This document shows positions 5,886-54,360 of a stretch of DNA of 64,000 nucleotides, in pieces; the stretch's first letter is position 1; the number at the start of each line of letters is the position of its first letter. Made by a program: the position numbers and the translations under genes. The notes beneath the pieces were generated by a model. It saw only the letters and a list, made by a program, of their open reading frames with translations, was not told the DNA's origin and made no database searches. The DNA comes from an uncultured Acidobacteriota bacterium (GTDB taxonomy: Bacteria; Acidobacteriota; Vicinamibacteria; Vicinamibacterales; CAVVIG01), in NCBI GenBank assembly GCA_963825245.1, contig CAWGSJ010000013.1:226537-290536 (forward strand), in the 5' to 3' direction.

Positions 5886-5908
5886 GCGGACCTGAAGGTC
5901 CGCCCTAC
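5886..5908. repeat. REP-like hairpin GCGGACC-TGAA-GGTCCGC plus CTAC tail
   Basis: 7-bp GC stem with TGAA loop; the CTA of the tail is the stop codon of the minus-strand gene. Same architecture as copies at 47618, 53222, 53261 and 54336. Confidence 0.6.
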
Positions 5909-7387
5909 TTGCGAAGGCTGCGGAGGATCTTCGGCGTGATGAACCACCGCAGCGCGCCCGGGCCGGCGGGAGGCAGCGTGTCGAAATCGATCCGGCAGAC
6001 CGCGCCCTTCTTGAACTCGAGAGGGTGGCGCGATCCGATCAGCCGCGCGCCGAGCTCGCCGATGCCGGGCTCGTGACCGACGAGCGCAATGCGCGAGCGG
6101 CGCGACTGTTTTTCGAGATCGGCCAGGACGGCCTGATAGGTGCCACCCGGCGACAGCGACTCGATGACGACGATCGGCGGACGTGGCTCGAACGTGCTGG
6201 CCACGGCATCGGCCGTTTGGCGCGCACGTATCAACGGGCTGGTGAGCACGACGTCGAAAGCCACGCCGAGCCGCAGCGAGTCCGCGGGCCTCCTTTCGAA
6301 GGCGCGCGATGCCGCGCTCGGTCAGCGGCCGCTTCGAGTCGTCGGGCCACGCGTCGCCGCGTTCCTCCGCGATCCCGTGCCGAATCAGGTACAGCTCGTA
6401 GCCGGCCGGCATCGCCTTATCCGGCGCGCCGGGACGCTGACTGGTCTTCGTGGGAACGCTGCGGCGGGTCAGCGCCGCCTCCGCGGTAGCGCTTCGGCGC
6501 GCCAAGCGGTCGCAAATGTCGATGAGCGTTTGCCGCTCACGGACGTAGCGCGCGTGCAGGCGCCGGCAGCTCTCCTCGAGCGACATCAGCACCGTGTCGA
6601 GGTCGCGCCACATCGACACGCTTGGCGGCGTCAGCGAAGCCTGCACGCCCCGGACATGATCGATGAGAATCTGGTGATCGTGCAGCCGGCCGAGCACCTC
6701 TTGCATCCGTTTCAACGTGCGCAGCTCCTTCGTGCTCTTCAGGCCGCGCGCCTCGACGTCGAGCTCGAGGCCGTAGCGCAGCTTCTTGAGCGCGATCCGC
6801 GCCGCGTGCAGCCGCTCGGCCAGGTAGACCGCTCCGGCCGTGTCGATGGCGTGCCGCAGCGCGAGCGCCCGCCGGCTGACACGCGCGTCGAGCGCCCAGC
6901 GCCAGGCGCGGCGCGTCTGGGCATCCTCCGGGCCCTCGAGCTTGCGGACGGCACGGTCGAGCTTGCGCACGATTCGACGGAAGGCGGCCGCCGTCTGCTT
7001 GGCGGGCATTTCCGCGCGTGCCTCGTCCCGCGTGGCGCGCGCCGCCTCGCGAACCAGCCGCAGCGCGGGCTCGGCGAAACGGCCAGATTCGTGCAGCTCG
7101 GCTATCAGGAGCAACATGACGTCCGCCTCGCGGACGCGCCCAAGCCGCCTCGTCACCTTACGCAGCTGGTGTGACAGCTTTGTGACGGACCCGCCGTCCA
7201 GCTGCAGCACGGGCAGCAGCTCCCGGAGCCTTCGCGTAGAGACGCGAGTCCGGTGAACGGCTCGTTGATCGCGGGTTTCAACGCCTGGCATCGCGCGGGA
7301 GAAACGCTCGAGGCGGGCGCGCAACAGAACGTAACGACTCGGTAACACCGACATGCTTAAGATGGGCGAAACGGAAATTATAGTCAA
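5905..7387 (-). CDS. CHAD-domain protein continuous in frame with a SixA-like phosphohistidine phosphatase (1 frameshift inside the SixA part)
   Basis: N-terminal ~320 aa have CHAD features (VHRTRVSTRRLRELLPVL ... AARIALKKLRYGLEL ... RMQEVLGRLHDHQ); then YELYLIRHGIAEERGD ... VVLTSPLIRARQTAD ... ALVGHEPGIGEL is a histidine-phosphatase (SixA) domain. No stop separates the two parts in this assembly. Confidence 0.6.
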
Positions 7388-7408
7388 TTCGCGTTAAGCT
7401 CATCCAGT

Positions 7409-8958
7409 ATGCGCCTTGCGGCCATCGACATCGGCACTAACTCGCTGCACATGATCGTCGTCCGGGTGCGGCCGGATCTTTCCTTCGAAGTGATCGACCG
7501 GGAGAAGGAAATGGTCAGGCTGGGGGCCGGCGGCCTCGACGGCCGCGCGCTCACGCCCGAGGCGATGCAGGCCGCGCTCCAGGTCCTGTCCAAGTTCCGA
7601 CGGTTGGCAGAATCGCACACGGTTGACCACATTGTCGCGGTCGCGACCAGTGCCGTGCGCGAAGCCGAAAACGGCGGCGAGTTCCTGAAGACGGTCGTCG
7701 CGGAGACGGGGATTCGGCCGCGGGTGATATCCGGCACCGAAGAAGCGCGCCTCATCCACATGGCGGCGGCATACGGCGTCGGTGCGGCCGGCGAGGTCCT
7801 GGTGGTGATCGACATCGGCGGTGGCAGCGTCGAGATCACGCGCGGCGCGGGGCCGGCGATGGAAAGCGGGCGCAGCTTCAAGCTGGGCGTGATCAGGCTT
7901 ACCGAGCGCTTCGTCAAGTCGGATCCGATGTCGCCGCGCGAAGAGCGGAAGCTGGTGCGGCATATCGACGCCGACGTCGACGAGCACATCCAGCGCATCA
8001 AGCGCGCCGGGTTCGATCGCGTCGTCGGCACGTCAGGAACGATCCTGAGCCTCGGGGCGATCGCCGCCGGACACCACAGCCGCGGCGGGGTCGCCACGCT
8101 GCGCAACCGCCGCGTCGCGGCCAAGCAGGTGCACCGGGTGCGCCGAACGATGACGTCGATCGGCCTCGAGAAACGCGTGCGCGTGCCGGGACTGGAGCCG
8201 CGGCGCGCCGACCTCTCGCCTGCCGGCGCGGTGCTGCTCGACACGCTGCTGCGCCGTCTCGGGGCCGAAGAGCTCACACTCTGCGACCTGTCGCTGCGTG
8301 AAGGCGTCGTCCTCGATTACATCGCGCGGCACCGGAAGGAAATCGCGCAGGCCGATCGGTATCCGGACGTTCGCCGGCGCAGCATCATCGAGCTCGCCGA
8401 GCGGTGCAGCTACTGGCCGGAGCATGCCCAGCAGATTGCGCGGCTGTCGACGACGCTGTTCGATCAGACGCGGGCGATCCACGGCCTCACCGACAAGGAC
8501 CGCGAGTGGCTGGAGTACGCGGCGATCCTGCACGACGTCGGCGTGCACATCAGCTACGAACGCCACCACAAGCACTCCGAGTACCTGATTCGCAATGGCG
8601 ACCTGCGCGGCTTCGAGCCCGAGGAAATCGAAACCATCGCGCTGGTCGCCCGCTATCATCGCCGCGCCACTCCCAAGAAGCGGCATTCCGTGCTGCGCGG
8701 GTTCTCCGGCCGGCGCCGCCGCACCATCCGGACGCTGGCGGCGATCCTGAGGCTCGCGGAAAGCCTCGATCGCAGCCATGCCCAGACGATCAGCGGCGTC
8801 GAACTGCACGACCGCGGCGAGGACGCGCTGCTGCAGCTGCGGACCAAGAGCGACGCCGAGCTCGAGTTGTGGGCGGCCAACCGGCATGCCGTCCCGTTCG
8901 AGCGACTCATTGGCAAACCCCTTCGTGTCGAGGTGAGCAGGACGACCGCGTATGTTGA
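7409..8958 (+). CDS. ppx: Exopolyphosphatase / guanosine pentaphosphate phosphohydrolase (Ppx/GppA) with HD domain
   Basis: MRLAAIDIGTNSLHMIV, DIGGGS and the HD region (LHDVGVHISYERHHKHSEY) are Ppx/GppA hallmarks. The ORF as assembled runs on to 9199 over the next gene, so the true stop is probably near 8934-8958 (an indel is suspected). Confidence 0.8.
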
Positions 8959-9650
8959 ACAACCTGACAAAGCCGCACGAGCACCCCGGGAAACTGTTCG
9001 TCGTCGAAGGAATCGACGGGTCGGGAAAGACCACCCAGCTGGGACTCCTCGCGAAGTGGCTGAGCGCCGAAGGCCACCGGGTGTTCGTCACGGAATGGAA
9101 CTCGTCCGCGCTGGTCAAGGCGGCGACGAAGACCGGCAAGAAAAAGAACGCGCTGACACCGATGACGTTCAGCCTGCTGCACGCCACGGACTTCGCTGAT
9201 CGGCTGCTGTACAAGATCATCCCGCCGCTCAAGGCAGGCATGATCGTGCTGGCGGATCGTTATACCTATACGGCGTTCGCCCGCGACGTGACCCGCGGCG
9301 TCGACCGGCAGTGGGTCCGCGACCTGTACAGCTTCGCGGTGCGGCCCGACCTGGCGCTCTACTTCCGCGTGCCGATCGACGTGTCGCTGGATCGCCTGAT
9401 GGCGCGCCGCGTCAAGCTCAAGTTCTACGAAGCCGGCATGGATCTCGGCTGGAGCACGAACCCGATCGAGAGCTTCCGGCTCTTCCAGGGCAAGGTGCTC
9501 GAGGAGTACGATCGCATCGTCGACGAGTTCGACCTGGAGGTCGTCGACGCGGTCGGCAGCATCACCGAGCAGCAGCGCTACGTTCGCGGCCTGATCGCGC
9601 CGCGGCTGGCCATGGCCAACGAGGAGATCCACGATGAGCAACCCGTCTGA
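8952..9650 (+). CDS. Thymidylate-kinase-family P-loop kinase, divergent from canonical Tmk
   Basis: LFVVEGIDGSGKTTQ P-loop and ADRYTYTAFAR (DRY motif); AGGACG RBS upstream. The canonical dTMP-binding REPGG is replaced by TEWNSS. Confidence 0.65.
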   Translation: MLNNLTKPHEHPGKLFVVEGIDGSGKTTQLGLLAKWLSAEGHRVFVTEWNSSALVKAATKTGKKKNALTPMTFSLLHATDFADRLLYKIIPPLKAGMIVLADRYTYTAFARDVTRGVDRQWVRDLYSFAVRPDLALYFRVPIDVSLDRLMARRVKLKFYEAGMDLGWSTNPIESFRLFQGKVLEEYDRIVDEFDLEVVDAVGSITEQQRYVRGLIAPRLAMANEEIHDEQPV

Positions 9651-10625: not shown

Positions 10626-10683
10626 TGATGGCTCTCCCGACCGTTTTCGCGATCATCTTACTCCCGGCGCTGGCGCACCCTTG

Positions 10684-14700: not shown

Positions 14701-16131
14701 CTACAAGAGCGTTCCCCGCAGCACGACGAGCGCGACCGAGAAGTAAATCACCAGTCCCGTGACGTCGACCAGCGTCGCCACAAACGGCGCTGAAGACGCC
14801 GCCGGATCGAATCCGAGACGTTTCAGCAGAAACGGCAGCAGCGATCCGCTGAGCGTGCCCCAGAGAACGACACCAACCAGCGACACCGAAACGGTGACCG
14901 CCACGAGCAGCCAGTGCGGACCGTAGATATCCGAGAACGCGGACCACAAGCTGATGCGCAGGAACCCGATGCTGCCGAGGATCGCCCCGAGCGCCAAGCC
15001 AGCCAGGACCTCGCGCCGCATGACGCGCCACCAGTCGCGGACGCCGACCTCCCCCAGCGCCAGTGCGCGAATGACGAGGGTGGCGGCCTGCGACCCCGAG
15101 TTGCCGCCGCTCGAGATGATCAGCGGCACGAACAGCGCCAGCACGACCGCCTTCGAGATCTCCGCTTCAAACACGCCCATCGCGGTGGCGGTGAGCATCT
15201 CCCCCAGGAACAGCGCGGTCAGCCACCCGGCCCGCTTTTGAATCATCCGCCCGAACGCGATGCTGATGTACGGCTCGTCGAGTGCTTCCGAGCCGCCGAT
15301 GCGCTGAATGTCGCGGGTCGCGGTCGCTTCGGCGACGTCGAGCACGTCGTCGATGGTCACGATGCCGATCAGCATGCCCGCGGTGTCGGTGACCGGCAGC
15401 GCGGTGCGATCGTACTGACGGAACACGCCGACGGCGGTTTCCTGATCGTCGGTGGCCTTCAACGCCACGAAACGGCGATCCATCAGCTCCGCAACGCGGC
15501 GATCGAGCGGCGCCAGCAGGAACTCTCGGATGCGCACGTCGTCAACCAGGAGATTGCGGCTGTCGACGACGTAGATCACGTTCAGCGTCTCGCTGTCCTG
15601 CCCGTGGGCGCGGACGTAGTCGAGGACCTCGCGGACCGTCCACTCCTCGCGGGCGGCGACATAATTCGGCGTCATCAGCCGGCCGACCGAGTGTTCTGGA
15701 TAGCCGAGCAGCGTCACCGCAACCGCACGCTCGGCCGGCGTCAGCAGCGCCAGCAGCTGCCGCGTCGCCTCGGCCGGCAGCTCTTCGAGGAACAGGGTCC
15801 GATCATCCGGCGCCATGTTGTTCAGCAATCCGGCGACGTCGTCCTGCGCCATCCCTTTCAGCAGCGCTTCCTGCGACTCCTGCGACAGATATTGGAATAC
15901 CGCTGCCGCATCCTTGCGCGGCATCACCCGAAAGACGACGACCTGATCCTCGAGGCTCAGCGCGGTGAGCAATGTGGCGACATCGCCGGCTTCGCGGTTG
16001 CGGAGCATGTCGCGCAGCCGCGCGTAGTCGCGCGCCCGCAGCACCTCGGCAAGTTCTTCGGCCGGCCTGGCGATCTCGCGAATCGCCGCAACCGCCTCCT
16101 CCCGATGGGGACCATTCAGCTGTTCTTCCAT
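14701..16131 (-). CDS. mgtE: Magnesium transporter MgtE (MgtE_N, 2x CBS, TM domain)
   Basis: MgtE_N (DVATLLTALSLEDQVVVFRVMP), CBS pair, and TM domain with PLIISSGGNSGSQAATLVIRALALGEV. In this assembly it is continuous with the upstream ORF (no stop before 16131). Confidence 0.75.
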   Translation of the reverse strand: MEEQLNGPHREEAVAAIREIARPAEELAEVLRARDYARLRDMLRNREAGDVATLLTALSLEDQVVVFRVMPRKDAAAVFQYLSQESQEALLKGMAQDDVAGLLNNMAPDDRTLFLEELPAEATRQLLALLTPAERAVAVTLLGYPEHSVGRLMTPNYVAAREEWTVREVLDYVRAHGQDSETLNVIYVVDSRNLLVDDVRIREFLLAPLDRRVAELMDRRFVALKATDDQETAVGVFRQYDRTALPVTDTAGMLIGIVTIDDVLDVAEATATRDIQRIGGSEALDEPYISIAFGRMIQKRAGWLTALFLGEMLTATAMGVFEAEISKAVVLALFVPLIISSGGNSGSQAATLVIRALALGEVGVRDWWRVMRREVLAGLALGAILGSIGFLRISLWSAFSDIYGPHWLLVAVTVSVSLVGVVLWGTLSGSLLPFLLKRLGFDPAASSAPFVATLVDVTGLVIYFSVALVVLRGTLL

Positions 16132-18231
16132 TTGCTTCAGCGCTGCTCTGACGACGTCGGCGTGATGCACGTGCGGACCGACAGCCTTGACGGCGTCGAG
16201 CCACAAGCGGTGAATCAGATCGAGGTCGCCGGAAGTGAAGGACGGGGGATGAGCTCCGAGATGATAGGTGTCCGATCGGCCGCTGCGGTGGTGGATCACC
16301 AGCCTGACGTCGAGCGCGTCGGGCTTGTCGGCCCGCTCCCAGGCCTCGCCGAGCAGGCGCGCCTGGTCTGCGGCGGAGAGCGTCGCCGACTCGCCGACGA
16401 ACACGTCCGACGCGCGAAGGCGAATCACGGCGCCGACGATCGCGTCGACCACGCTGCGGGTGGGAACAATCAGCAGCCGCACCGGCCGGCCAACCCGTTC
16501 GGCGAGTGCGACGACGTCCGAGAGCAGCTTCCGCTCGTAGGAAGTCGGCGTGGTCCTCCCCGCGTCTTCCTCGTTGACGTCGACGTCGAGCAGACGCGCC
16601 GTCATGACGACGACGTCGCGATCGCCGGGCGTCTGCAGAGCCGCCATGACATGCGCCAGCAGGTGCGGGTTGCGCACCGGCACCAGCAGGCTGCCGGGAC
16701 GCGCTTCGATCTGGTCGGGCGAAAGCTCGGCGGCGAGCATCAGGTCGAACGCGGTTTCATCCGTGCCGATATCGACTGGCGGCCGGTGGCGAGCCGCCAC
16801 GGTGAACCACGCCGCGAGCATCGTCATCAGCGTCACGGCGGCGATCGCAGCGATATCGCCGGTGACGATCATCCCGACCGCGCAGGCGACGGCCACCGCG
16901 CGCGCGACGACGAGCCCGGCAGCGAAGTGCCGGCGGCCGACACGGAGGTCGCCTGGGGCGGTGTAGGGCGTCGGCCCCTGGCGCGCACGGCGGAGGCGCA
17001 TGATTGCGGCAATCGACAGCACCAGGGTGGTCGCGATTGCCACGCCATAGGCGCGTGCCAGCCACGACACTCGCCCGCCGCTCGCGAGCACCGCGACCGT
17101 CGTCGCCATCACCGTGAGGTCGATGGCGCGTGCCGGCGTGCCAAAGCGGCTGTGCAGCGACGTGAGACCAGGGGGGAGGGTGCCTTCCGCCGAGAAGCGA
17201 TGCATCATCTGCTCGGCGTCGATCACTGACGCGTGAGCGGCCGGCAGCAGCACCAGCGCCGCAGCCAGCGCCAGGGCGAGCGCGACGAGGTTCCGCACCG
17301 ACGCCGGGGCCGCGAGATGCTGCGACAGCCCGGCTAGCGGCGCATTGGCCCATACCTCCTGTTCACTGGCCGGGACGAGCCAGACGAAGAGGAACGTTCC
17401 CAAGACAGTCGCCACGACGGTGAACAGAACCGTGGCGATGGCGGTTCGTCGCAGCGCCTGCACGCGGGGCGGCGGGAGCTCGGGGGCCGCGTGGGAGAGC
17501 GCTTCCCCGCCGCCGACGACCGGCAGCGTCAGGGCGAATCCGAGCAGCCACGCCAACGCCGTATCAGCCGGAAACCATCCGGTTCTCGCCACTGGCGCCG
17601 GCAGGACCAGCGACGAAGAGACGGCGCCGTGACGCGCCAGCGTGACAAGAGCCCAGACGATCGTGACGAGGACGATGCCAACCCCAATCCAGCTCGCCCG
17701 CGCAAGCGCGTCGCGGCCAATCTCTCGCCCGAGCCGAGTCTGCAGCCACAGCACGCCGAGCGCGCCCATCGCAATCAGGGTCGCCAGATCCTCGGCCCGG
17801 AGATATCCGGTCAAGCTGCGGCCGGCGATCGCCGATGCCGCCACGCTGGCGGCGTAATGTCCGATCAGCACGCACGCCAGTGCGCCGAGCAGGATGCGCT
17901 CCACCAGCGCCGCCGCCTTCGCGACTCCGGCGGCGCGCGGTCCGAACGCACGCGTCACCGAGCCGACGAATCCACCGGGAATCAGCAGCGACCAGCTTTC
18001 GATGTCGACCGATCGTGCGAACGCGGCGAGCACCGCGGCGGCGAGCACGAACCAGCCGGCGGAATCGCCTACTGCCGCCCGCGCCAGACCCGAGATGAAA
18101 AACACGGCGACGCCGAATTGCGCGATCGCCAGTGCGGCGGCCTTCCACACCGACATGAACGGCAGGAACGCCGTCGCCGACAGGACGACGCGAATCGGAT
18201 GACGGGACCGGATGGGTGAGAACGGAGCCAT
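16132..18231 (-). CDS. APC-superfamily permease with a C-terminal USP-like domain
   Basis: About 12 TM helices, then VVVMTARLLDVD ... VGRPVRLLIVPT ... VFVGES (UspA-like). Same reading frame as mgtE; fusion versus lost stop is unresolved. Confidence 0.55.
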
Positions 18232-20083: not shown

Positions 20084-20134
20084 GAAGAGAGCGCTGTAGG
20101 CGACCCGTTCAGGGTCGCCAGCATGCCATCTTCG

Positions 20135-41513: not shown

Positions 41514-41527
41514 TGGTGATGGGTGCG

Positions 41528-42235: not shown

Positions 42236-43786
42236 GCGGGAGCCGCCGGTTCGGTCTCCTTCACGGAGACCGGCACGGCCATGCGTAAACTGCGCGCCGC
42301 CGCCCGGGCTGTTTTCCGCCCAGACGCTGCCACGCTCGGCCGCCAGCAGTCCCCGGACGATCCACAGGCCCATGCCCGTGCCGGAGGCCCGGGTCGTCGC
42401 CGCCTCACCGCGGTAGAAGCGCTCGAACAGATGCGGCAGGTCGGCCGGTGCGATGCCGGCGCCATGATCGCGAACGCGAATGGTGAGCTCCTGGTCGGTC
42501 ACGGTCGCGGAGACCTCGATCCTCGATCCTCGCGGGGTGTACTGCGCGGCGTTTTCGAGCAGGTGGGCCAGCGCGGTTGCGGTCAAGCGCGGATCCAGCC
42601 GCACCGGGACGTCGGGCTCGATCACGACTTCCACGGCGTGTCCCTGCAGCGTGTGCTCGACCTGATCGCGAGCCGCCGCGACGATCTCCGATGGATGCGT
42701 CCAGCGCGACTCGGTCGCCACCGCGCCGGCATCGATGCGCGCCATCTCGAGGACGTTCTGGAACAGCCGCGTCAGGCGCTCGACTTCCGACAGGATCAGA
42801 TCGCTCTGCTCGAGCCGGTCCTCGCGGGTCAGGTCCGGGGTATTGAGATTGCTCGCGGCGATGCGGATGGCGGTCAGCGGCGTGCGAAGGTCGTGGCTGA
42901 GCGACGCCAGCAGCGTGGTCTTCAGCTGCTCGCTCTGCCGCGTGAGCTCGCCGGCCCTGCGCTCCTCGAGAAATTCGGCGCGTTCGATGGCGATGGCGAC
43001 GACCCCTGCCAGCGTATCGAGCGTCCCGGCCTCGACCGGCCGGCCGGCCGCGGCGAGCAGGCCGATCGGCTTCGTGCCGACGCGGAGCGGCACGAGCCGG
43101 ATGGTTCGACCCTCCACTGTCATCGTTCGATGACCGGCATACGTGCGGGCATGCGCGTCGAATTCGAGGGTCGTCTGCGCCGCCGCGAACACATTCGACA
43201 GCTGGCGACGATCGAGCTCGATGTTCTCCCCGCCCGCCTGGTGGACGTCCCAGTCGGTGCCGCGCGGCACCGCGATGGCGACGAATTCGAGGTCGAACCG
43301 GCGGCCCACCGACCGCGCCAGCGCCGCCAGCGCCTGCCGGCTGTCGGTGGTCATCATCACGTCCCGGCTGAGATCGAAGAGCCGCGCGAGTTCGTCGCGG
43401 CGTCCGGCGGCTTCCTCGGTACGCGCTCGGGCGACGGAGGACAGGTTGCTGGCGACCAGACTCACCGCCAGGAAGGCGAACAGGGCAATCCAGTTCTGCG
43501 GGTCAGCAATCGTGAACGTGCCAACCGGCGGCAGGAAGAAGAAATTGAAGCAGAGCATCGCGACCACGGAGGTCAGGACCGCGATCGACAGACGCGAGGT
43601 CGCCGCGACGACCAGGACGACCATCAGGTAGCTGGTCGAGACGGTCGCGGCGTTCGAGACGCGCAGCCACCGGCTGAGGACGAGCGTCACCAGGGCGACG
43701 GCGAGCAGCGCGCCCGCGGAGCGCGCCTTGTCGGTGCGGTCGAACTTGCGCATAAAGCGTCGCTCAGATTTCCACTTGGACGCCAA
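42232..43786 (-). CDS. kdpD: KdpD C-terminal half: 4-TM Kdp sensor, GAF-like and histidine-kinase domains (1 frameshift near 42290 joins it in-frame to kdpE)
   Basis: LSHDLRTPLTAIR (H-box) and HGAGIAPADLPHLFERFYRG ... GTGMGLWIV (HATPase); an alternative frame gives AQFT...PVSVKETEPAAPASR* whose stop overlaps the kdpE ATG. Confidence 0.75.
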
Positions 43787-45682
43787 GCTCCACCACCCGC
43801 TCCGGCGGCAGGCGGAAGAACGTCGTCGCGCGCACCGCGTTGCGGGCCATCAGCACGAACAACTGCTCGCGCCACAGCGCCATGCCCGGCGCGTTCGTCA
43901 CGATCAGCGTTTCGCGGCCGAGGAAATAGGTCACATCTCCCTCATCGAGCTCGAGCCCGTGTTTGGAGGCAAAGGCAAGGGCTTGCGGCACGTTCGGGTC
44001 CTGCATGAAGCCGTAGCTGACGACTACCTCGAACAGGCCCTGGCCAAGCGGACGGACCATGACCTGATCCTTCGGCGCCACATAGGGAACGGGCTTCGTG
44101 GTGACCATCAACGTCACGACGTGTTCGTGCAGAACCTTGTTGTAGCGAAGATTGTGGGCGAGCGCCGGCGGCGTGCCCTTTCCCTGCGCCGTCATGAACA
44201 CCGCGGTGCCCGGAACACGCGCCGGATGCGTGGTCTCGACCGTCCTGAGAAAGGTGTCGACCGGCACTGCCCGCGCCGTGAGGCGTGCCGCGACCAGCTG
44301 ACGTCCGGTCTTCCAGGTCGTCATCAACGTGAACAGCCCCGCGCCGATGACCAGCGGCAGCCATCCCCCGTGCGTGATCTTGAGGGCATTGGCGCCGAAG
44401 AACGCCAGGTCGATCGTCAGAAAGACGCCGGTCACCGCGTAGGCCACTGCCGGCGGCCACTTCCACCGTTCGATGGCGATGACGAACAGCAGCACCGCGG
44501 TGATCACCATCGTCAGCGTCACGGCGATGCCGTAGGCGGCGGCGAGCGCGGTCGACGAGCCGAACCCGATGACGATCAGGATGGTGCTGATCATCAGCGC
44601 CCAGTTGATCTGCGGCACGTAGACCTGACCGATCTCATCGTGGGAGGTGTGGTCGATGTCGAGGCGCGGGCAGTAGCCGAGTTGAATCGCCTGCTGGGTC
44701 AGCGAGAACGCGCCGGAGATGAGCGCCTGCGACGCGATGATCGCGGCGGCCGTCGCCAGGCCGACGAGCGGCAGCAGCGCCCAGTCCGGCGCGAGCAGGA
44801 AGAACGGCTGTTCGGCAGCGGTCGGATTGCGCAGCAGAAGCGCGCCCTGGCCGAAGTAGTTCAGCAGCAGCGCCGGCAGCACCAGGCTGAACCATGCCAC
44901 GCGGATCGGGAGCTTGCCGAAATGGCCCATGTCCGCATAAAGCGCCTCGCCGCCGGTCACGACCAGGAACACGGCGCCGAGCACGGCGAAGCCATGCCAG
45001 CCGTGCTCCACGAAGAACGACACGGCGTGGCGAGGGTCGATGGCCGTCGAGCACGACCGGATTCTGAACGAGCGACGCAATCCCCAGCGTCGCGATGACG
45101 ATGAACCAGACGACCATGATCGGCCCGAACAGGCGGCCGACGCGGTGCGTGCCATGCCGCTGGATCGCGAACACCGCCGACGAGAATCACGACCGTGACC
45201 GGCACGACGTACGGATCGAAGAACGGCGTCGCGACCTTCAGGCCCTCGACGGCGCCCAGCACGGTAATCGCGGGCGTGATCATCCCATCGCCGTACAGCA
45301 GTGCGGCGCCGAAGATGCCCATCAGCACCAGCACCGGCCACCGGACGCGGGTGCCGTTGTTCTGCGGCAGCAGCGCGGTCAGCGCGAGGATGCCGCCCTC
45401 GCCCTGGTTGTCGGCGCGCATGACGATCGCGATGTACTTGACCGAGATGACCAGCAGCAGCGAGTAGATGATCAGCGACAGCACGCCGAGCACGTTGTCG
45501 TGAGTCGCCGGCACCGAATGCGAGCCGAAAAAGCACTCCCGCATCGCGTACAGCGGACTGGTGCCGATGTCGCCGTAGACGACGCCAATCGCCGTCAGAG
45601 TAAGGGGAAGGAGCTTGCGCGGGCCGACGCCGGTCGTCGCCAGAATGTCTCCAATCGCCGGGTTGGATCAGGTCCGCACTGA
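43764..45682 (-). CDS. kup: KUP/HAK/KT potassium uptake transporter (multiple frameshifts; start approximate)
   Basis: [23 protein letters not shown] ... [18 protein letters not shown] ... and C-terminal [13 protein letters not shown]... match Kup across 3 frames. Confidence 0.8.
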
Positions 45683-45703
45683 TTTTATACCGAGCCCCCA
45701 CGG

Positions 45704-47565
45704 TCACTGACTGAGATGGAATGGGACACTGGTGACGACGGTATTGCGGCGGAACAGCAGCGCGCCTTTGATCAGCAGCGCCCGCTGGTTGTGGAACAGG
45801 TGGTGCCACCAGCGCGCGGGCACGAACTCCGGGAGCACCACGGTGACGTAGTCGTCGGGTGACTCGCGATCGACCTGCTCGATGTACTCGAGCAGCGGCT
45901 CCATCAGCGATCGATACGGCGACTGGAGCACGACCAGCGGCACGCCATCGCCCCACTTGTCCCATTCGCGTTTGAGCTGCTCGGTCGCGACCGGATCGAC
46001 GTCGACGTAGAGGGCTCGGACATCCTTGGATAAGGTACGGGCGTAGTTCACGGCCTCGACCACCGCGCGCTGGACACCGCTCACTGGCACCAGGACGATG
46101 TTGTTCCGCTTTTTCGGCTCTGGCGCGAAGCCGCGCATCGTGAGTTGATTCGCCACGGAGTCGTAGTGCTGCCGCGTCTTCTTGAAGACGAGCACATGGA
46201 TCGGGATGAGCAGCATGATGATCCATGCGCCCTCGTCCTGCCTTGGTGACTCGCCACGACGATCAGCACGAGGGCGGTCACCAGCGCACCGATCGCGTTC
46301 ATCGCCGCGTGCGCCCGCCAGCTCGAGCCGCCGAGGCGGCGCCAGTGCACGACCATCCCGGCCTGCGAGATCGTGAACGACAGGAACACGCCGATCATGT
46401 AGAGCGGGATGAGCGCATGCGTGTCGCCGCGAAACATCACCAGCAGGATGCCGGCGAGGACGCTCAGCCCGACGATGCCGTTGGAAAAGGCCAGCCGATC
46501 GCCCTGGTTCATGAACTGGCGCGGCAGGTGGCGGTCGCGGGCGAGGATCGACGCGAGCCGCGGAAAATCGGCGTAGGCGGTGTTGGCCGCGAGCACGAGG
46601 ATCAGCATCGTCGCGGCCTGCACCGCGTAGTACGGCATCGCCGCGAGCGCCGAAGACGCCGCGCGCCAGCTGCGACACGACCGTTTCCTGCTCGTTCGGC
46701 ATGATGTGGTAGGCATGCGCGAGCAGCGTGATCCCGAGGAACATCGTCACGGACAACGCCGCCATCATCAGCATGGTGGCTGCGGCATTGCTGCGACTCG
46801 GGCGGCTGAAACGCAGGAACGCCGTTCGAAACGGCTTCGACGCCGGTCATCGCGGTGCAGCCGTTCGAAAACGCGCGCAGGAGCAGAAACAGCGTCAGCG
46901 GCGACGCCGTCGCCACCAGGTCGTGCGGCCGGAGCCGGTGGCACGGTCCCGGCCAGCACGCGCCAGGTCCCGACGCCAATCAGCAGGAGCGATCGTCGCA
47001 ATGAAGAAATACGTCGGCACGGCGAAGATGCGGCCGGACTCGCGGATGCCGCGCAGATTGCCCAGCATCAGCACCACGACGAATCCCAGCGGCGAGCTCG
47101 ACGCGACTGACGTGCCAGTTCGGAAACGCCGACGTGATCGCGGCCACTCCGGCCGCGACGCTGACCGCGACGGTCAGCACGTAGTCGATCAGCAACGCCG
47201 CCGCGGCAATGAGCGCCGGCGTCTCGCCAAGATTGTCGCGCCGCCACGATGTAGGCGCCGCCTCCGCTTGGATAGGCATGGATCGTCTGTCGATAGGAAA
47301 ACACGACGATCAGCAGGATGGCGGCGATGACGAAGGCAATCGGGCTGGCCGCGCCGAGGGCCGCCGCGCCGGCCAGGACCAGGACGCGCAGGACTTCTTC
47401 CGTGGCGTAGGCGACGGACGACAGCGCATCGGATGACAGGACGGCCAGGCCGACTGGCCTGGACAGCCGCTCGTGGTGGGCGAGATGCGACGGAATGGGC
47501 TTGCCGACGATCAGTCGCTTGACCTGAGCGCCGAGCGACCCTTCTTCGAACACCAGGGCCTCCAA
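45704..47565 (-). CDS. APC-superfamily permease with a C-terminal soluble domain (multiple frameshifts)
   Basis: N-terminus (MEALVFEEGSLGAQVKRLIVGKPIPSHLAHHERLSRPVGLAVLSSDALSSVAYATEEV), TM core and C-terminal domain (IIMLLIPIHVLVFKK...) lie in 4 frames. Confidence 0.6.
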
Positions 47566-47617
47566 CCGCCGACGGGGTTAGCTGACGGGCTCGAGGTTGG
47601 AAGTCCTCTATCGCTGC

Positions 47618-47674
47618 GATCGTCCGCCTGAAGGCGGACACTACAATCGTCCGCCTGAAGGCGGACGCTACGAT
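47618..47674. repeat. Two tandem copies of a 29-30-nt unit, each a REP-like hairpin GTCCGCC-TGAA-GGCGGAC followed by (G)CTAC
   Basis: gatcGTCCGCCtgaaGGCGGACactac / aatcGTCCGCCtgaaGGCGGACgctacgatc; no spacers, so not a CRISPR array. Confidence 0.7.
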
Positions 47675-47774
47675 CGCGGCCGAATTCGCCCCCGGGCGCG
47701 AAATACGCCCTCTGGGTCCCCCGCGCGCCCTGTAACAGGCGCTTAGGCTTGTCGTAACTGCAATGGTAACAGAC

Positions 47775-49008
47775 TCAGCGGGTCAGGATGTTCAGCGGCA
47801 GCGATTGGCCCATCTCGAAGTAGCCGCGCGGCGTCGGATGGATGCCGTCGCAGTTGAAGGGCGCGGAGATCAGATCGCCGTTCGACGCGTCGCGCACGGC
47901 GGCGTCGAAGTCGAGCACGCCGTCGAACGGCGCGCGCGTGCGAATCCACTGGTTGACCTCGCGGCGAATCGCCGTCTTGGCGTCGTTCCAGCCGGTGTTC
48001 GTGCCGGACGGCGGCACGTTGTGCCGCGGGATGATCGTGACGCCAAGCACCTTCATGCGACGCGCCTTGATGGCCGCGGCGATCCGGGTCATGGCGTCGA
48101 TGACCTGCGCCGCGGACGCGCCGCGGCGGATGTCGTTGGTGCCCATGAAGAGGATCACGTCCGTCACGCCTGCGTGCGACATCACGTCGCGCTCGAGGCG
48201 ATCCAGCCCGGGCGTGCTGTCGGGCGGCGGCTGAAGGCCCTCGCTGGTCAGCGTGTTGCCGCCGATCCCTTCGTTGACGACTGCTTTGTGCGCATCGCGC
48301 CGGGCGCTGTCGAGGCGGAGCCGCACGGAGAGCCAGTCCACCCACCGGTCGTGGGCGTCAAGGGTGGAGCACGTTCCGTCGGTGATCGAGTCGCCGAAGG
48401 CGACGATCGCGCCCGGCGCTGGACGCTGGAGCTCACGTCGATCGCCTTCAGCAACGGCATCGTGGTGAGCGTGGCCGTGAACGGATCGCCGCCCTCCATC
48501 GCCGCGTGATCGCCGGTCGCGACGTATGAGGTCGCCATTGCGCCGGTGTGCTGGCTGGACAAGAACGTCCGTGTCAGGAATGTAGAGGCTGACGGCGAGG
48601 TCCTGCATCGCGAGGACGTTCATGACGATGGGATCGCTTCGGACCGTCCCGCCGGCCGGGATGGTGGCCGTCTCGCTTCCGTTGAAAAGCGCCGGCTTGT
48701 TCGACCCGGGGATGAGCACCGGTCCGCGGGCGCGCACACCAACATAGGCGCGGCCAATCCTGACGGCGCTCTTGCCGTATGCATTGTCGAGCCGGATGCG
48801 CACGGCGTCGCCGCCGATCGTCACGCGAGCGTTGAGCCGCACGGTCGTGTTCGTCAGGGCGGCGTTGGCCGCGGTCTGCTGCGAGGTCCCCCAGGCAGTG
48901 ATCCAACGGGCGGCCGGCTGGGTCTGCGATCGTCCGCGAGCGGTCGATCCGACAGTCACGAATCAATGTCGCGGCGACAACGACCGCAGGAATGGAGTAC
49001 TTCATCAT
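47775..49008 (-). CDS. Secreted SGNH/GDSL-family hydrolase (about 3 frameshifts)
   Basis: Signal peptide MKYSIPAVVVAATL; IVAFGDSITDG (block I Ser), NEGIGGNT, FMGTNDI and the DGIHPT catalytic His region. Confidence 0.7.
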
Positions 49009-49176
49009 CTGGTCTTCTTTTTCCACCGGCGGCGGGGCCCCACCCCCGCCGCGAACTTACGCTGATGCCTCGCCTCGGATTCGCTCATCCTCGGCTCGGC
49101 ATGGCCGCAGGCGCTGCGCTGGATTTTACACGGCCTTAACAAGCCGCGGCGTGTGGCTGGGATAGTCTGCAGAGAG

Positions 49177-50009
49177 ATGCGTCTTGACGCTCCCGCCGTG
49201 CCGCGTCCTGTGCCCGCGGCGTCTTCTCCGGCTCCGGTCGGCTCCCCTCGGCCCGCCAAGATCGACGTGACGGGCATGAACTTCTATTACGGCCTCAACC
49301 GGGTCCTCGACGGCATCAACCTCAAGATTCATGCCGAATCAGGTCACGGCGCTCATCGGCCCGTCGGGATGCGGCAAGTCGACGTTCCTGCGGTCGCTGA
49401 ACCGGATGAACGACATCATCCCGGGCGCCCGGGTCGAAGGCTCGGTCCTGATCGACGGCCAGGACATCTACGCGCCCGGGCGTGGACGTCGTCGCCCTGC
49501 GGCGGCGCGTCGGCATGGTGTTCCAGAAGTCGAACCCGTTTCCGAAGACGATCTTCGAGAACGTCGCCTACGGTCTCCGCATCAACAGCATGGCGGCGTC
49601 GCGCGACGACATGCGCGGGCGGGTCGAGGACAGCCTGAAGGCCGCGGCGCTCTGGGACGAGGTCCGCGACCGGTTGCATACGTCTGCGCTCGCGCTCTCG
49701 GGCGGCCAGCAGCAGCGCCTGTGCATCGCCCGGGCGCTGGCGGTCGAACCCGAGATCATCCTGATGGACGAGCCGGCGTCGGCGCTCGACCCGATCGCCA
49801 CCCAGCGCATCGAGGAGCTGATCTACCAGCTGAAAACGCGGTATACGATCGTCATCGTGACGCACAACATGCAGCAGGCGGCGCGCGTGTCGGACGTCAC
49901 GGCGTTCTTCTGGCTCGGCAAGCTGGTCGAATGCGGCCGGACCGAAAAGATTTTCACGGCTCCAGCCGAAAAGCTGACCGAGGACTATGTCACGGGACGG
50001 TTTGGCTAA
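49177..50009 (+). CDS. pstB: Phosphate ABC transporter ATP-binding protein (2 frameshifts)
   Basis: Near-collinear with E. coli PstB: [12 protein letters not shown] ... [24 protein letters not shown] ... [17 protein letters not shown] ... [10 protein letters not shown]. Confidence 0.85.
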
Positions 50010-50013
50010 TCGC

Positions 50014-50698
50014 ATGGAGCCGGTCGAACGCGTCGTCACGCCACTTCCAGGACGAGCTCGAGCAGCTGAAGACCCGGCTGCTCGAGATGGGCGGCATTGC
50101 CGAGGAACAGGTGCGACCGGCGGTCAAGGGGCTTGTCGACCGCGACCAGGCGCTCATCGACCAGGTGCTCACCGGCGACGACCCGCTGAACTCGCTGCAC
50201 ATCGAGATCGACAACCGCTGCTTCACGCTGCTGGCGCTCTACCAGCCGATGGCCGCCGACCTGCGGACCATCGTCGCGGCCGTGAAGATCAACACCGATC
50301 TCGAGCGGGTCGGCGACCTGGCGGTGAACATCGCCGAGGCGGCCCGCCGCTACGTCGCGCACCCGCCGGTCAAGAAGCTGATCGACATCCCGCGGATGGC
50401 GATGATCGCGCAGACGATGCTGCGCGACGCGCTGGACGCGTTCGTCCGGCGCGACATCGAGCTCGCACAGCAGGTGCTCAACGAGGACGACCGGCTCGAC
50501 TCGCTCAAGACCCAGATCTTCCGCGAGCTCCTGACCTACATGCTCCAGGACCCGCACACGATTGAGCCGGCCCTCGACCTGATCCTGATTTCGCGCCACC
50601 TGGAGCGGATCGGCGATCACGCCACGAACGTCGCCGAGGACGTGATCTTCATCGTCTCGGCCCGGGACGTCCGCCACCACGCCCGGGAAGGGGCGTAG
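50014..50698 (+). CDS. phoU: Phosphate signalling complex protein PhoU (1 frameshift near 50035)
   Basis: Two PhoU repeats ([14 protein letters not shown] ... [16 protein letters not shown]). Confidence 0.85.
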
Positions 50699-50785
50699 AA
50701 GTCGGAGGCTGGAGACTGCGGCCTGGGGGCTGGACTCCCCACCCTCGAGTCTCCAGACCCCAGTCTCCAGCCCCCAGACGCTCAT
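50699..50785. repeat. Complex inverted/direct repeats of CTGGAGAC / GTCTCCAG with a CCAGCCCCCAG run, downstream of phoU
   Basis: ggaggCTGGAGACtg ... gggggCTGGACtcc ... gaGTCTCCAGaccccaGTCTCCAGcccccag; the motif CCAGCCCCCAG recurs at 54985-55021. Confidence 0.45.
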
Positions 50786-50795
50786 AGAATAGAAT

Positions 50796-50980
50796 TCATG
50801 CCCGTGCCGCCGGACGAGGGGCTGTGTGTGTTCTGCCGGAAGCAGCCGGTGGACCCCGCCTGGCGCCCGTTCTGCAGCGAACGCTGCAAAACCCAGGATC
50901 TGGCCCGCTGGGCCGACGGCACGTATAGGGTCGCGGGCGAACCGGCGAGCGACCCGGAAACGGAGAAGTCCGATGGCTGA
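50796..50980 (+). CDS. yacG: DNA gyrase inhibitor YacG (zinc-binding)
   Basis: CVFCRKQPVDPAWRPFCSERCKTQDLARW is the YacG zinc-finger signature. Confidence 0.7.
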
Positions 50981-52323
50981 ACTGAAAGCCCCTGAGACTT
51001 CCAACTTCATACCTCAGACTTCTATGAGCGACTCGCTGACCGTCATCGACAACCGGACCGGGAAGAAGTACGAGCTGCCGATTCAGGACGGCACGATCCG
51101 GGCCATGGATCTCCGGCAGATCAAGGCCGGGGCCGGACGACTTCGGGCTGATGACGTACGACCCGGCGTTCATGAACACGGCGAACTGCCGCAGCTCCAT
51201 CACCTACATCGACGGCGACAAGGGCATCCTGCTCTATCGCGGCTATCCCGATCGAGGAGCTCGCGGAGCACAGCGACTACCTCGAGACCGCGTACCTGCA
51301 TCGTCTTCGGCGAGCTGCCGACCTCGTCGCAGCTCCAGGCGTGGACGCGCGAGATCACCCTGCACACGATGCTGCACGAGAACGTGAAGACGTTCATGCA
51401 GGGCTTCCAGTACGACGCCCACCCGATGGGCATCTTCCTGAGCACGGTCGGCGCGCTGTCGACGGTCAATCGCGACGCGAAGTTCATCTTCGACAAGGCG
51501 TCCCGCCTGCGCCAGATGCAGCGGCTGATCGCCAAGGTGCCGAGCATCGCCGCCTACGCCTACCGCCACAGCATCGGCCGGCCCTACATCTACCCCGACA
51601 ACGATCTGAGCTTCACCGGCAACTTCCTGAACATGCTGTTCAGCATGCCGGCCGAGAAGTACCACCCGAACCCGGTGCTGGCGCGCGCGCTCGACGTGCT
51701 GTTCATCCTCCACGCCGATCACGAACAGAACTGCAGCACCAGCACGATGCGCAACATCGGCAGCTCGCACGTCGATCCGTACTCGGCGCTGGCCGGGGCC
51801 GCCGCGGCGCTGTGGGGCCCGCTGCACGGCGGCGCGAACGAAGCGGTGCTGCGGATGCTGAACGAGATCGGGTCGGTGTCGCAGGGTGCCGGACTTCATC
51901 AAGCGGGTGAAGTCGGGCGAGGGCAAGGACCGGCTGATGGGGTTCGGCCACCGCGTCTACAAGTCGTACGACCCGCGCGCGAAGGTCATCAAGAAGATCG
52001 CCGACCTCGTGTTCACCGTCACCGGCAAGAACCCGCTGCTCGACATCGCGCTCGAGCTCGAGCGCATCGCGCTCGAGGACGAGTACTTCGTCAGCCGCAA
52101 GCTGTACCCGAACGTCGACTTCTACTCCGGCCTCATCTACCAGGCGATGGGCTTCCCGGTCGAGATGTTCCCGGTCCTCTTCGCCATCCCGCGGACCGCG
52201 GGCTGGATTGCGCAGTGGGAGGAGATGCTGCTCGATCCCGAGCAGAAGATCGCCCGCCCGCGGCAGATCTACACCGGCGCCGCCCGCGCGGGCATACGTG
52301 CCGCGAGAGCAGCGCGGCAATGA
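50973..52323 (+). CDS. gltA: Citrate synthase (about 4 frameshifts)
   Basis: [50 protein letters not shown] and [19 protein letters not shown] are collinear with E. coli GltA over 4 frames. Confidence 0.85.
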
Positions 52324-52341
52324 GGGATCGAGTGATCGGTC

Positions 52342-53221
52342 ATGTCGCACGCGATTGACCCGATGCTGGCGACCTCTGCTCGCGCTCGCGCTGCAGGCGG
52401 CCGCGCCGCGCCGCGTTCGACTCGAGCCGCGCCTGGGAGCACCTGCGGCAGCTCGTCGCGCTCGGTCCGCGGCCGGCGGGCTCGCCGGCGATCGAGCAGG
52501 CGCGCGGCTACATCAAGGCGCAGCTCGCCGCCGCCGGCGTATCGGTCGTCGAACAGGCATGGGAGGACCAGACGCCGGCCGGGCCGATCCAGATGGTCAA
52601 CCTGATCGCGACCATCCCGGGCGCATCGAAGAACCGCCTGATCATCGGCGGGCACTACGACACGAAGCGCTTCCGCGAGTTCCGCTTCGTCGGCGCGAAC
52701 GACGGCGGGTCGAGCGCGGCGTTCCTCATCGAGCTCGCGCGCGTCCTGAAGGCGCGCAAGAACGCGCTGACGATCGAGCTGCTCTTCCTCGACGGCGAGG
52801 AGGCCGTCGTCGAGTGGACCGGCACCGACAACACCTACGGCAGCCGCCACTACGTCGCGGCCGCGCGGCAGGACGGGTCGCTGGCGACGCGAAGGCGTTC
52901 ATCCTGGTCGACATGATTGGCGACCGCGACCTGCAGCTGACGCGCGAGACGCAACTCGACGCCGTGGCTCGACGGCATCATCAGGGGCGCGGCCACGCGC
53001 AGAAGCTCGGCACCTACTTCGCCGGTCCGCCACTCGCGCTCGAAGACGATCACCTGCCGTTCCTCGCGGCCGGCGTGCCGTCGGTCGACCTCATCGACTT
53101 CGAGTTCCCGGCCTGGCACACCGCCGACGACACGCTCGACGCCGTCAGCGCGCGCAGCCTGCAGATCGTCGGCGACGTGCTGCTCGCCGCGCTGCCGCAG
53201 ATTGAATCCAAACTCCGGTAG
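52342..53221 (+). CDS. M28-family peptidase (about 3 frameshifts)
   Basis: LIIGGHYDTK ... FVGANDGGSSAAFLIELARVL ... LLFLDGEE ... FILVDMIGDRDLQ ... DDHLPFLAAGVPSVDLIDF are M28 zinc-ligand motifs. Confidence 0.7.
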
Positions 53222-53283
53222 GCCCGACCTTTAGGTCGGGCGCACGCCGGCCCAGCACACGCCCGAGCTAAAGCTCGGGCCTA
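53222..53283. repeat. Two REP-like hairpins (GCCCGACC-TTTA-GGTCGGGC and GCCCGAGC-TAAA-GCTCGGGC plus CTAC) between convergent genes
   Basis: First hairpin abuts the TAG of the + gene; the CTA of the second's CTAC tail is the stop codon of the minus-strand gene. Confidence 0.65.
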
Positions 53284-53982
53284 CCGTCCCACCGCCGTGA
53301 GCAGCACGATCAGCGCCTTGTCGCCCTGCAGCCGCGATGTGCCGACGACGACCGTTTCGCCGACGTCCATGTTGAACGTCGTGTCGATGATGCGGCCGGG
53401 ATGCTTCACGATGCGCACCGTGCCGTTACCGGCCCCGGTGCGAAAGCCGCGGCCCGCGACGAACGGGAATGCCTGCCTGGGGTCGCGCAGGTTGAAGTTG
53501 ATCTGCACCTCGCTGTCCGACCGCGCCGAGGTCCGCAGCTCGAGCTCGTACTCGCGGTTCTCGGGGCCGCGAATCAGCGACGTCGACCGGGGCGACCCGA
53601 GAATCCAGCGCGCGTCGATCAACTCGTAGCTCTTATAGGGCAGGAACTGGCTCATGTCGGCGAGCGCCTTGCTCGCGGCCGGGGGCAGATCCCGCGTCGG
53701 GGCTCCGCCCTGGAGATCGCCGACCGCCAGGATCACGCTGAACCCGTGGTTCGCGCTCTTCTCCTCGCGGAACCGCTGCGTCTCCGCTTCGACCTCCTTG
53801 ATCCTGGCAATCGCCTGCTCGAGCTCGCGCTGCTTCAATTCGACCACGCGGTGCGACTGCTGGAGCAGCACCCTGGCCCGAGCGGAGTCGAGGGCCCGGA
53901 CGGCCGGCTCGAAATCCTGCGCGAGCGCCGGCGCCGCCGACGACAGGGCGCAGGCCACGACCGCCGCTAACGGTTTCTTCAT
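53281..53982 (-). CDS. Secreted hypothetical protein (coiled-coil N-terminus, beta-rich C-terminus)
   Basis: Signal peptide MKKPLAAVVACALSSAAPALA; third gene of an ECF sigma / anti-sigma module. Confidence 0.5.
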   Translation of the reverse strand: MKKPLAAVVACALSSAAPALAQDFEPAVRALDSARARVLLQQSHRVVELKQRELEQAIARIKEVEAETQRFREEKSANHGFSVILAVGDLQGGAPTRDLPPAASKALADMSQFLPYKSYELIDARWILGSPRSTSLIRGPENREYELELRTSARSDSEVQINFNLRDPRQAFPFVAGRGFRTGAGNGTVRIVKHPGRIIDTTFNMDVGETVVVGTSRLQGDKALIVLLTAVGR

Positions 53983-53990
53983 GGGCGTTC

Positions 53991-54322
53991 TCACAAGTCG
54001 AAGTCTGGATCGATGACCCAGATGATCCGCGTCCCGCCGGGCGTATCGAACTGCACCTGCCGCCGGACTTCGCCCCCGGCCGCTCGACGCTGCCCGCGGG
54101 GAGCGGCGCCTGGCGCGGCAACCGCTGGCCAATCACCACGCCCGCCGCAAGTGTCGCCGCGACCGTCACGCCGACCATCAGCGGCGGCGGCGACCACAAG
54201 GCCGGAGGCCGCGTGGCCTCCGCGATGACCACCCGCCTGATCCGCTGCAGGTCGAGCGGCGGCAGGGCGGGCGCGTCGGCCAGAGGATCGCCGTCGCGCA
54301 GTTGTTTCCCCAGGTTCGTCAT
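53991..54322 (-). CDS. Putative membrane anti-sigma factor (1 frameshift)
   Basis: Directly downstream of the ECF sigma gene; single TM helix (LMVGVTVAATLAAGVVIG); C-terminus in another frame (...FDTPGGTRIIWVIDPDFDL). Confidence 0.4.
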
Positions 54323-54335
54323 GATCCCTCGAGAC

Positions 54336-54360
54336 GTCCGGCTAAAGCCGGACGCTACGC
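54336..54360. repeat. REP-like hairpin GTCCGGC-TAAA-GCCGGAC plus GCTACGC
   Basis: Same stem, loop and tail architecture as 47618-47674; in the short sigma / anti-sigma intergenic region. Confidence 0.55.

Follow-up and report, generated by a model that had tools for sequence, protein, structure and literature searches.

Probable GTAG-type REP elements in a Vicinamibacteria genome and their association with RAYT genes in related contigs

Repetitive extragenic palindromic (REP) elements are thought to be non-autonomous and to be mobilised or maintained by domesticated transposases (PMC2817692, PMC5581495), the REP-associated tyrosine transposases (RAYTs, also TnpA-REP). TnpA-REP binds the folded, single-stranded form of the strand that carries GTAG and cuts at CT on the 5' or the 3' side of the hairpin; the GTAG is required for cleavage, and binding and cleavage have been demonstrated for the E. 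coli, S. maltophilia and Marinomonas systems only (PMC8266576). In the survey by Di Nocera, De Gregorio and Rocco (2013, PMC3733652), 24 families of GTAG repeats are described from Proteobacteria, Cyanobacteria, Chloroflexi and the PVC group, and only tyrosine transposases with long terminal inverted repeats from Acidobacteria. Here we describe short hairpins in a 64-kb stretch (the window) of contig CAWGSJ010000013.1, from an uncultured Acidobacteriota bacterium of the class Vicinamibacteria. Six of them, noticed in a first-pass annotation made from the letters of the window, are together with their relatives very probably (about 0.9) GTAG-type REPs, that is, short non-autonomous DNA elements presumed to be spread by RAYTs. 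That annotation had called them REP-like, a classification that is upheld by the GTAG tag, by the occurrence of head-to-head and tandem dimers, and by RAYT genes flanked by such repeats in related contigs.

The six hairpins are all present where the first-pass annotation placed them, apart from two end coordinates that were off by 1-2 nt, and all have perfect, GC-rich stems of 7-8 bp and loops of 4 nt. Each had been described as followed by a (G)CTAC tail. In five copies this tail is the complement of a GTAG head (CTAC at 5905-5908, 47641-47644, 47668-47671, 53281-53284 and 54355-54358 of the plus strand), but the copy at 53222 has no CTAC; because GTAG stands immediately 5' of it (53218-53221), it is the same element reversed. 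The shared design, read from the head, is thus GTAG, 0-1 nt, the first arm of the stem, a TTYA loop and the second arm, with a total length of 23-24 nt. When orientation is considered, GTAG lies 0-1 nt from the stem in all six of these copies and in both of two extra copies. Three stem subfamilies are found in the window, GGCGGACC, GTCCGSC and GCCCGASC, and the predicted folding energies of single copies range from -18 to -21 kcal/mol. The window contains six to eight REPs per 64 kb, all extragenic apart from the stop codons that they share with genes. The copies and two less certain candidates are as follows.

5886-5908, minus strand: REP of the GGCGGACC subfamily, GTAG-G-GCGGACC-TTCA-GGTCCGC, -18.3 kcal/mol; plus-strand reading GCGGACC-TGAA-GGTCCGC-C-CTAC.
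20096-20118, plus strand: probable REP variant with a 5-nt loop, GTAG-GCGACCC-GTTCA-GGGTCGC, -21.3 kcal/mol.
24950-24973, minus strand: REP of the GTCCGSC subfamily, additional to the six first reported, GTAG-T-GTCCGAC-TTCA-GGCGGAC-G, with one A/G stem mismatch.
47621-47647, minus strand: REP, downstream unit of a tandem pair on that strand, GTAG-T-GTCCGCC-TTCA-GGCGGAC; plus-strand reading from 47622 GTCCGCC-TGAA-GGCGGAC-A-CTAC.
47648-47674, minus strand: REP, upstream unit of the tandem pair, GTAG-C-GTCCGCC-TTCA-GGCGGAC-G, with CTAC at 47668-47671; plus-strand reading from 47648 GTCCGCC-TGAA-GGCGGAC-G-CTAC.
53218-53241, plus strand: REP, GTAG-GCCCGACC-TTTA-GGTCGGGC.
53261-53284, minus strand: REP, GTAG-GCCCGAGC-TTTA-GCTCGGGC; plus-strand reading GCCCGAGC-TAAA-GCTCGGGC-CTAC.
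54335-54358, minus strand: REP, GTAG-C-GTCCGGC-TTTA-GCCGGAC-G, -18.8 kcal/mol; plus-strand reading from 54336 GTCCGGC-TAAA-GCCGGAC-G-CTAC.
55597-55617, plus strand: uncertain REP-like hairpin without a GTAG head, GACGGACC-TCTTA-GGTCCGCC.

The copies at 53218-53241 and 53261-53284 form a head-to-head (HH) dimer with the GTAG tags facing outward, a REPIN-like arrangement that spans 53216-53286; the 75-nt region is predicted to fold as a single hairpin (-51.5 / -59.5 kcal/mol). The head-to-tail (HT) dimer at 47621-47674 consists of two 27-nt units that are directly tandem, as the first-pass annotation had it, although its extent had been given there as 47618-47674. An independent repeat search placed the copies at 24950, 47621, 47648 and 54335 in a single family of direct repeats and paired 53216-53242 with 53260-53286 as inverted repeats. 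The variant at 20096-20118 is antisense to both of the flanking minus-strand genes and adjoins a hairpin built of heptamer repeats, and the intergenic stretch around it gave no alignment with the relatives. The candidate at 55597-55617 lies within the last codons of a second extracytoplasmic function (ECF) sigma factor gene, and its counterpart in a related locus, L007 (loci from other genomes and contigs carry L numbers here, and proteins P numbers), is a similar but less palindromic sequence.

Chance palindromes in a 67% GC genome are a practically negligible explanation of this set. The strict design (GTAG, 0-1 nt, a perfect stem of at least 7 bp and a 4-nt loop) occurs six times in the window, whereas 300 dinucleotide-preserving shuffles gave 0.057 on average and never more than 1, so the excess over fortuitous GC-rich hairpins that the first-pass annotation had made its own test is there. 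Similarly, perfect hairpins with a TTYA or TRAA loop number six, compared with 0.06 in 200 shuffles. Once the six are set aside, 15 perfect hairpins of that size are left in the window, close to the chance level of 11.1 +/- 3.7 given by the shuffles, and a permissive scan that allowed one mismatch and any head gave 176 hairpins that are mostly chance, with only 24950 and 55597 appearing to be related to the family. The same sequences, moreover, recur at hundreds of places in related genomes.

The stems also covary. Candidates in Acidobacteriota loci were picked solely by GTAG-N8-TTYA, which leaves the 3' arm unconstrained (n = 151), and 127 of the 151 form at least 7 of 8 pairs, while the remainder form 2-6, giving a bimodal distribution. 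Among the 67 distinct sequences, changes on both sides are seen at all 8 stem pairs and double changes fill 125 cells, where shuffles give 50 +/- 7. Covariation scores 0.539 in the real set and 0.193 in shuffled sequences, none of 500 of which reach the real value, with 0.10-0.15 for slid controls. The structure of the hairpin is conserved while the sequence of its stem varies.

The association with transposases was traced in other genomes. The exact 21-base pattern GTAGGGCGGACCTN{1,3}AGGTCCGC matches at least 112 stretches in the GTDB species genomes, with many in each metagenome-assembled genome (MAG). Among the matches listed, most are in MAGs of Vicinamibacteria and other Acidobacteriota, chiefly labelled Vicinamibacteria or Vicinamibacterales, and the other labels are Aquisalimonas, Deltaproteobacteria, Verrucomicrobia, Phycisphaeraceae and Bifidobacteriaceae, of which the last four may include binning errors. 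A second sequence, GTAGNGTCCGCCTTYAGGCGGAC, matches at least 120 metagenome stretches. RAYT genes were called with the NCBI model NF047646 (REP-associated tyrosine transposase) at a cutoff of 80 bits, and they comprise two groups. (i) In the Aquisalimonas MAG locus L038, an open reading frame (ORF) scoring 191.6 bits is flanked by inverted REPs of the GGCGGACC subfamily. In L114, from a Vicinamibacteria MAG, a RAYT homologue is cut by the end of the locus and finishes in two inverted REPs; the 162-residue protein P0121 (92.9 bits) is identical to it over the 101 C-terminal residues present in L114. Loci L121, L122 and L123 each have two REPs, a RAYT gene and two further REPs in the opposite orientation, with GTAGGGCGGACCTTYAGGTCCGCC. 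(ii) A second type of RAYT is encoded on three metagenome contigs, L141, L192 and L221, where it scores 95-102 bits, is flanked by GTAGNGTCCGSCTTYAGSCGGAC and is approximately 40-48% identical to P0121, P0125, P0129 and P0161, four RAYTs that were recovered with the first type. The 54335 copy of the window recurs as an identical 23-mer among the repeats that flank the gene in L192. The GGCGGACC and GTCCGSC stems are thus each paired with a RAYT type of their own in related contigs. In L221, 11 tandem inverted REPs with a period of 31 nt follow the RAYT gene (1872-2204 in reverse-strand coordinates), and the first overlaps the end of the RAYT open reading frame.

By homology with the systems of E. 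coli, Stenotrophomonas and Marinomonas, the GTAG strand of these elements would fold as single-stranded DNA and be bound and cleaved by its cognate RAYT, which would disseminate and maintain the repeats. Copies would be retained at sites of low cost to the host: directly past a stop codon, in the gap between two convergent genes (head-to-head dimers), in spacers between cistrons and, once, in the apical loop of a riboswitch helix. Once transcribed, the hairpins (about -18 kcal/mol for single copies and -50 to -60 kcal/mol for the dimer) would probably act as barriers to 3' exonucleases, and those located 0-5 nt past a stop codon may disturb ribosomes as they terminate, an effect that has been reported for the REPs of E. 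coli.

Comparison with relatives points to elements that come and go. The 97-residue PntA protein of the window is encoded on 20 metagenome contigs, six of which were taken as 20-kb loci whose longest aligned blocks are 83-96% identical to the window, and orthologous loci such as L007 and L008 were reached through homologues of a 283-residue ORF of the window. For three window genes near the copies at 47622-54358, no identical protein was found elsewhere. These relatives, which were retrieved by way of proteins and not of the repeat, contain 13 further copies in 163 kb. The REP that follows the gene with CHAD and His_Phos domains (5886) is intact in the window and in L001, L003 and L006, with variants of loop and stem and one or two tandem copies, but has decayed in L002 and L004, where the head is ATAG through a synonymous change of AAG to AAA and the TAG stop is kept. 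In L004 and L005, a GTCCGCC copy with a perfect stem lies by DinB genes in the stretch that corresponds to 24950; these sites are putative orthologues. Between the convergent genes, L007 has a doublet with other stems (GGCGGGTC and GGCGGACC, where the window has GCCCGAGC and GCCCGACC). L008 is more distant, and there (10655-10675) the two genes are separated solely by a 21-nt GTAG...CTAC palindrome, GTAGGGTCGGGGCCGCCCTAC, that contains both TAG stops and may be either a collapsed REP dimer or the ancestral state. The REP after the ECF sigma gene (54335) is absent from L008, where that gene and the next overlap (TGA/ATG; L008 9630-9660), whereas in the window (54322-54366) they are separated by a 41-nt spacer with the REP and a fresh Shine-Dalgarno sequence; in L007 (9560-9640), the reading frame of the sigma factor continues through a degenerate REP, which lengthens the protein at its C terminus. 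Because orthologous sites differ in these ways, copies have been gained, duplicated, decayed and lost on the time scale of these genomes. An alternative in which REPs insert beside a GTAG that is already in place, and which would account for the shared stop codons, was ruled out at the riboswitch loop (L007, L008) and at the sigma junction (L008): these empty sites contain no GTAG, and the tag therefore arrives with the element. At the convergent pair, insertion beside an existing GTAG may still apply; the palindrome that L008 has between the two TAG stops could be a decayed dimer.

Since every element begins with G-TAG, one that lies against the 3' end of a gene, or reaches a little way into it, would provide an amber stop codon. 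The first-pass annotation had noticed stop codons at three sites, two in the CTAC tail and one directly before the hairpin, and all three hold. On the minus strand, 5905-5907 ends the ORF 5905..6264 and 53281-53283 ends the ORF 53281..54132, homologues of which end at the same residue; on the plus strand, 53219-53221, directly before the hairpin at 53222, is the stop of the M28 peptidase ORF 52208..53221. In three of the six window copies, a gene terminates at the TAG of the tag. The ORF 5905..6264 is the histidine-phosphatase end of the CHAD/His_Phos gene, which is intact as a single 393-residue product in L001; the GC content at third codon positions (GC3) of the ORF is 0.84. The HH dimer lies between the convergent M28 peptidase gene (plus strand) and a gene of a type of about 224 residues (minus strand), with each TAG stopping one of them. 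In Acidobacteriota loci more widely, the TAG is the stop of a coding ORF in 24 of 226 copies, which is by far the commonest single offset. A G precedes 9 of 13 TAG stops and 5 of 7 TAA stops in the window, but the numbers are small, avoidance of CTAG could account for a G before TAG, and the point is not used as evidence. This supply of stop codons was the most striking point of the earlier description; it is already known, since Di Nocera and colleagues state that GTAG termini often provide TAG (PMC3733652).

Not all copies are located in this way. The REP at 54335 separates two genes of an operon that are transcribed in the same direction: it begins 5 nt past the TAG (54364-54366) of the ECF sigma factor gene, and 12 nt remain between its end and the next ATG (54322). 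The copy at 24950 precedes, by 18 nt, the ATG of a gene on the minus strand whose ribosome-binding site is GGAGG. Among 185 copies in Acidobacteriota loci that could be classified on both sides, 60 are in convergent, 108 in same-direction and 17 in divergent spacers, and 168 of the 185 adjoin at least one gene 3' end; the strand calls behind these counts are approximate, being taken from GC3 periodicity.

The first-pass annotation compared the hairpins to REP elements that act as terminators and mRNA stabilisers at gene ends, a reading that does not fit several copies. Ordinary intrinsic (Rho-independent) terminators that resemble REPs by coincidence would explain GC-rich hairpins right after stop codons at three sites and between one convergent pair of genes, yet they are very unlikely. 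No T-run follows the hairpin on either strand at any window copy, no terminator-like call coincides with a REP in the region 40000-59999, and the combination of GC-rich hairpin and T-run that characterises an intrinsic terminator is not found. Two copies lie in a riboswitch aptamer, one lies between cistrons and one just upstream of a start codon, and neither the conserved GTAG nor the RAYT association is a feature of terminators.

A more substantial alternative, which we regard as possible but unlikely, is that the host keeps the hairpins as regulatory RNA (stabilising mRNA 3' ends, attenuating between cistrons or modulating translation termination), with selection acting on the RNA and the likeness to REPs being secondary. 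In seven of the eight window copies the flanking transcript would read GUAG-stem-UUYA-stem, the hairpins are stable and their stems covary, and relatives with 75-85% local identity still have the copy behind the CHAD/His_Phos gene at the orthologous position. For E. coli REPs, protection of mRNA 3' ends has been proposed, and those within 15 nt of a stop codon have been reported to cause ribosome stalling and reduced translation (Liang et al. 2015, cited in PMC12306157). Covariation, however, is equally expected if a RAYT recognises the hairpin in single-stranded DNA, and G/T mismatches are not in excess over A/C, with 5 of each among copies with a single mismatch (an uninformative result). 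The orientation bias in same-direction spacers of other Acidobacteriota is weak (63 versus 45), and selection as RNA leaves the invariant GTAG and the flanking of RAYT genes unexplained. A role in RNA is better seen as a possible added function of REPs than as an alternative origin.

The tandem copies at 47621-47674 occupy an unusual position, within the following element.

47552-47759, minus strand: cyclic di-AMP (c-di-AMP) riboswitch aptamer, Rfam RF00379, 55.6 bits as compared with a gathering score of 38.

The two REPs constitute a 54-nt insert in the apical loop of one helix of the riboswitch, so that this loop holds 67 nt, as against 10 in the RF00379 consensus, and in the predicted fold they stack as an extension of the host helix. 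The insert is absent from the orthologous riboswitches of L007 (59.7 bits) and L008 (71.8 bits), which directly precede kup. In the window the riboswitch, scoring above the gathering threshold and lying upstream of a K+ transport gene, is in the 5' leader of a frameshifted gene that is followed by kup. This gene resembles a KimA-like APC-family permease, a resemblance read by eye from the six-frame translation; Pfam gave no family for two of its ORF fragments. A limited literature search on REPs and riboswitches brought up no description of a REP inside a riboswitch aptamer. The core GTAGGGCGGACCTTCAGGTCCGCC (20 nt) raises a second question, since it flanks RAYTs that are only 25% identical, in the gammaproteobacterial Aquisalimonas (L038) and in Vicinamibacteria (L114, L121-L123); MAGs with the labels Deltaproteobacteria, Verrucomicrobia, Phycisphaeraceae and Bifidobacteriaceae contain it exactly too. 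We put forward two linked suggestions as speculative and rather improbable: the riboswitch insert would extend the aptamer in a way that is tolerated or even has a function, and the shared core would reflect convergence of REP sequences under a common constraint or a spread between phyla that is uncoupled from the transposase. The former, if true, would show that hairpins dispersed by RAYTs can remodel structured regulatory RNAs.

Several points weigh against assigning the window hairpins to RAYT-spread REPs. By tblastn, neither the 64-kb window nor the loci of the closest MAG contain a RAYT gene; because the window has none, the link between REP and RAYT is known from related MAGs and contigs and not from the same genome. 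The GCCCGASC subfamily (copies 53218 and 53261) yielded no RAYT, and the contigs with the GTCCGSC-type RAYT are unbinned fragments of soil metagenomes. Mobility is deduced from presence and absence among relatives. The stop codon assignments rest on a combination of ORFs, GC3 periodicity, Pfam and homologues, an approach that was adopted because the window genes show many frame disruptions. The comparison of G/T with A/C pairs gives no sign of strand-specific selection.

Some other features of the window are recorded here for completeness. The reading frame changes in mid-gene at 6264 (CHAD/His_Phos), several times within 45000-47550 (the KimA-like permease), within 52208-53221 (M28 peptidase) and elsewhere; relatives encode these genes intact or broken at other places, and the disruptions look like indel errors of long-read assembly rather than pseudogenes. 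Long intergenic hairpins whose arms repeat a unit of about 7 nt in tandem, such as (CGTTCTA)n opposite (GAACGCA)n, are located at 19988-20086, 26645-26735, 29981-30065 and 50704-50775, and form a class distinct from the GTAG REPs. At 29981-30065 the hairpin has AAAA on one side and TTTT on the other, as a bidirectional terminator would, and similar GGAGTCG heptamers occur near the degenerate REP of L007. An unusually long ORF of the MgtE family (14701-18231, minus strand; 1176 residues, with MgtE_N, CBS and MgtE domains) is full-length in L001 and L005 too. A 38-nt sequence at 26804-26841, CGTCCGGGTCCATCGTGTCCGTGTTGAAGCTTTTCGTG, has a 92% inverted copy 32 kb away at 58802-58839 and is unrelated to the REPs.

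The REP/RAYT system, so far described mostly from Proteobacteria, is hereby extended to Vicinamibacteria, abundant and almost uncultured soil Acidobacteriota, in which at least two REP-RAYT pairs appear to coexist. The novelty is modest and consists of this host, the coexisting pairs, the REP dimer in the riboswitch loop and the core shared across phyla; a literature search found no paper linking Vicinamibacteria with REPs. The repeats explain many TAG stops and short intergenic hairpins in such MAGs, should not be labelled as terminators by annotation pipelines, and may cause problems in assembly and binning. The riboswitch insert and the REP after the sigma gene are natural experiments on how much structure is tolerated by a regulatory RNA and by translationally coupled genes.

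With the REP/BIME (bacterial interspersed mosaic element) sequences of E. coli, the Vicinamibacteria repeats share the character of extragenic, GTAG-tagged palindromes. The E. coli elements have bulged stems of about 35 nt, alternate between Y and Z types and contain sites for IHF and gyrase. In contrast, the stems described here are perfect and short, and no alternating REP arrays are seen in the window. The arrangement at 53216-53286, two inverted REPs 19 nt apart that form one long hairpin, is like that of the REPINs of Bertels and Rainey (discussed in PMC8049555 and PMC5581495), but the window copies are mostly singletons or a tandem pair, and the arms of the doublet are unlike each other, making it a heterodimer. 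The Group 3 REPtrons, such as the REP/TnpA-REP system of Stenotrophomonas maltophilia (Corneloup et al. 2021, PMC8266576), are similar in having a short, perfect REP right after GTAG, with an 8-bp stem and a loop of 3-4 nt; the T...A ends of the loop are as in the TTTA loop of Marinomonas (PMC8266576), and the small RAYTs of about 160 residues with an HUH motif (PDHxH), proteins known here from sequence alone, are as in that group. The closest match is with the GTAG REP superfamily as a whole (PMC3733652; Nunvar et al. 2010, PMC2817692). The shared features comprise (i) an unpaired terminal GTAG, a GC-rich stem of 6-9 bp and a short loop, (ii) subfamilies that differ by complementary stem changes and occur as singletons and as HH and HT dimers, and (iii) a preference for same-direction and convergent spacers, the use of TAG as a stop codon and RAYT genes with inverted REPs. 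The elements show every sequence-level characteristic of this superfamily, and what distinguishes them from it is the phylum of the host.

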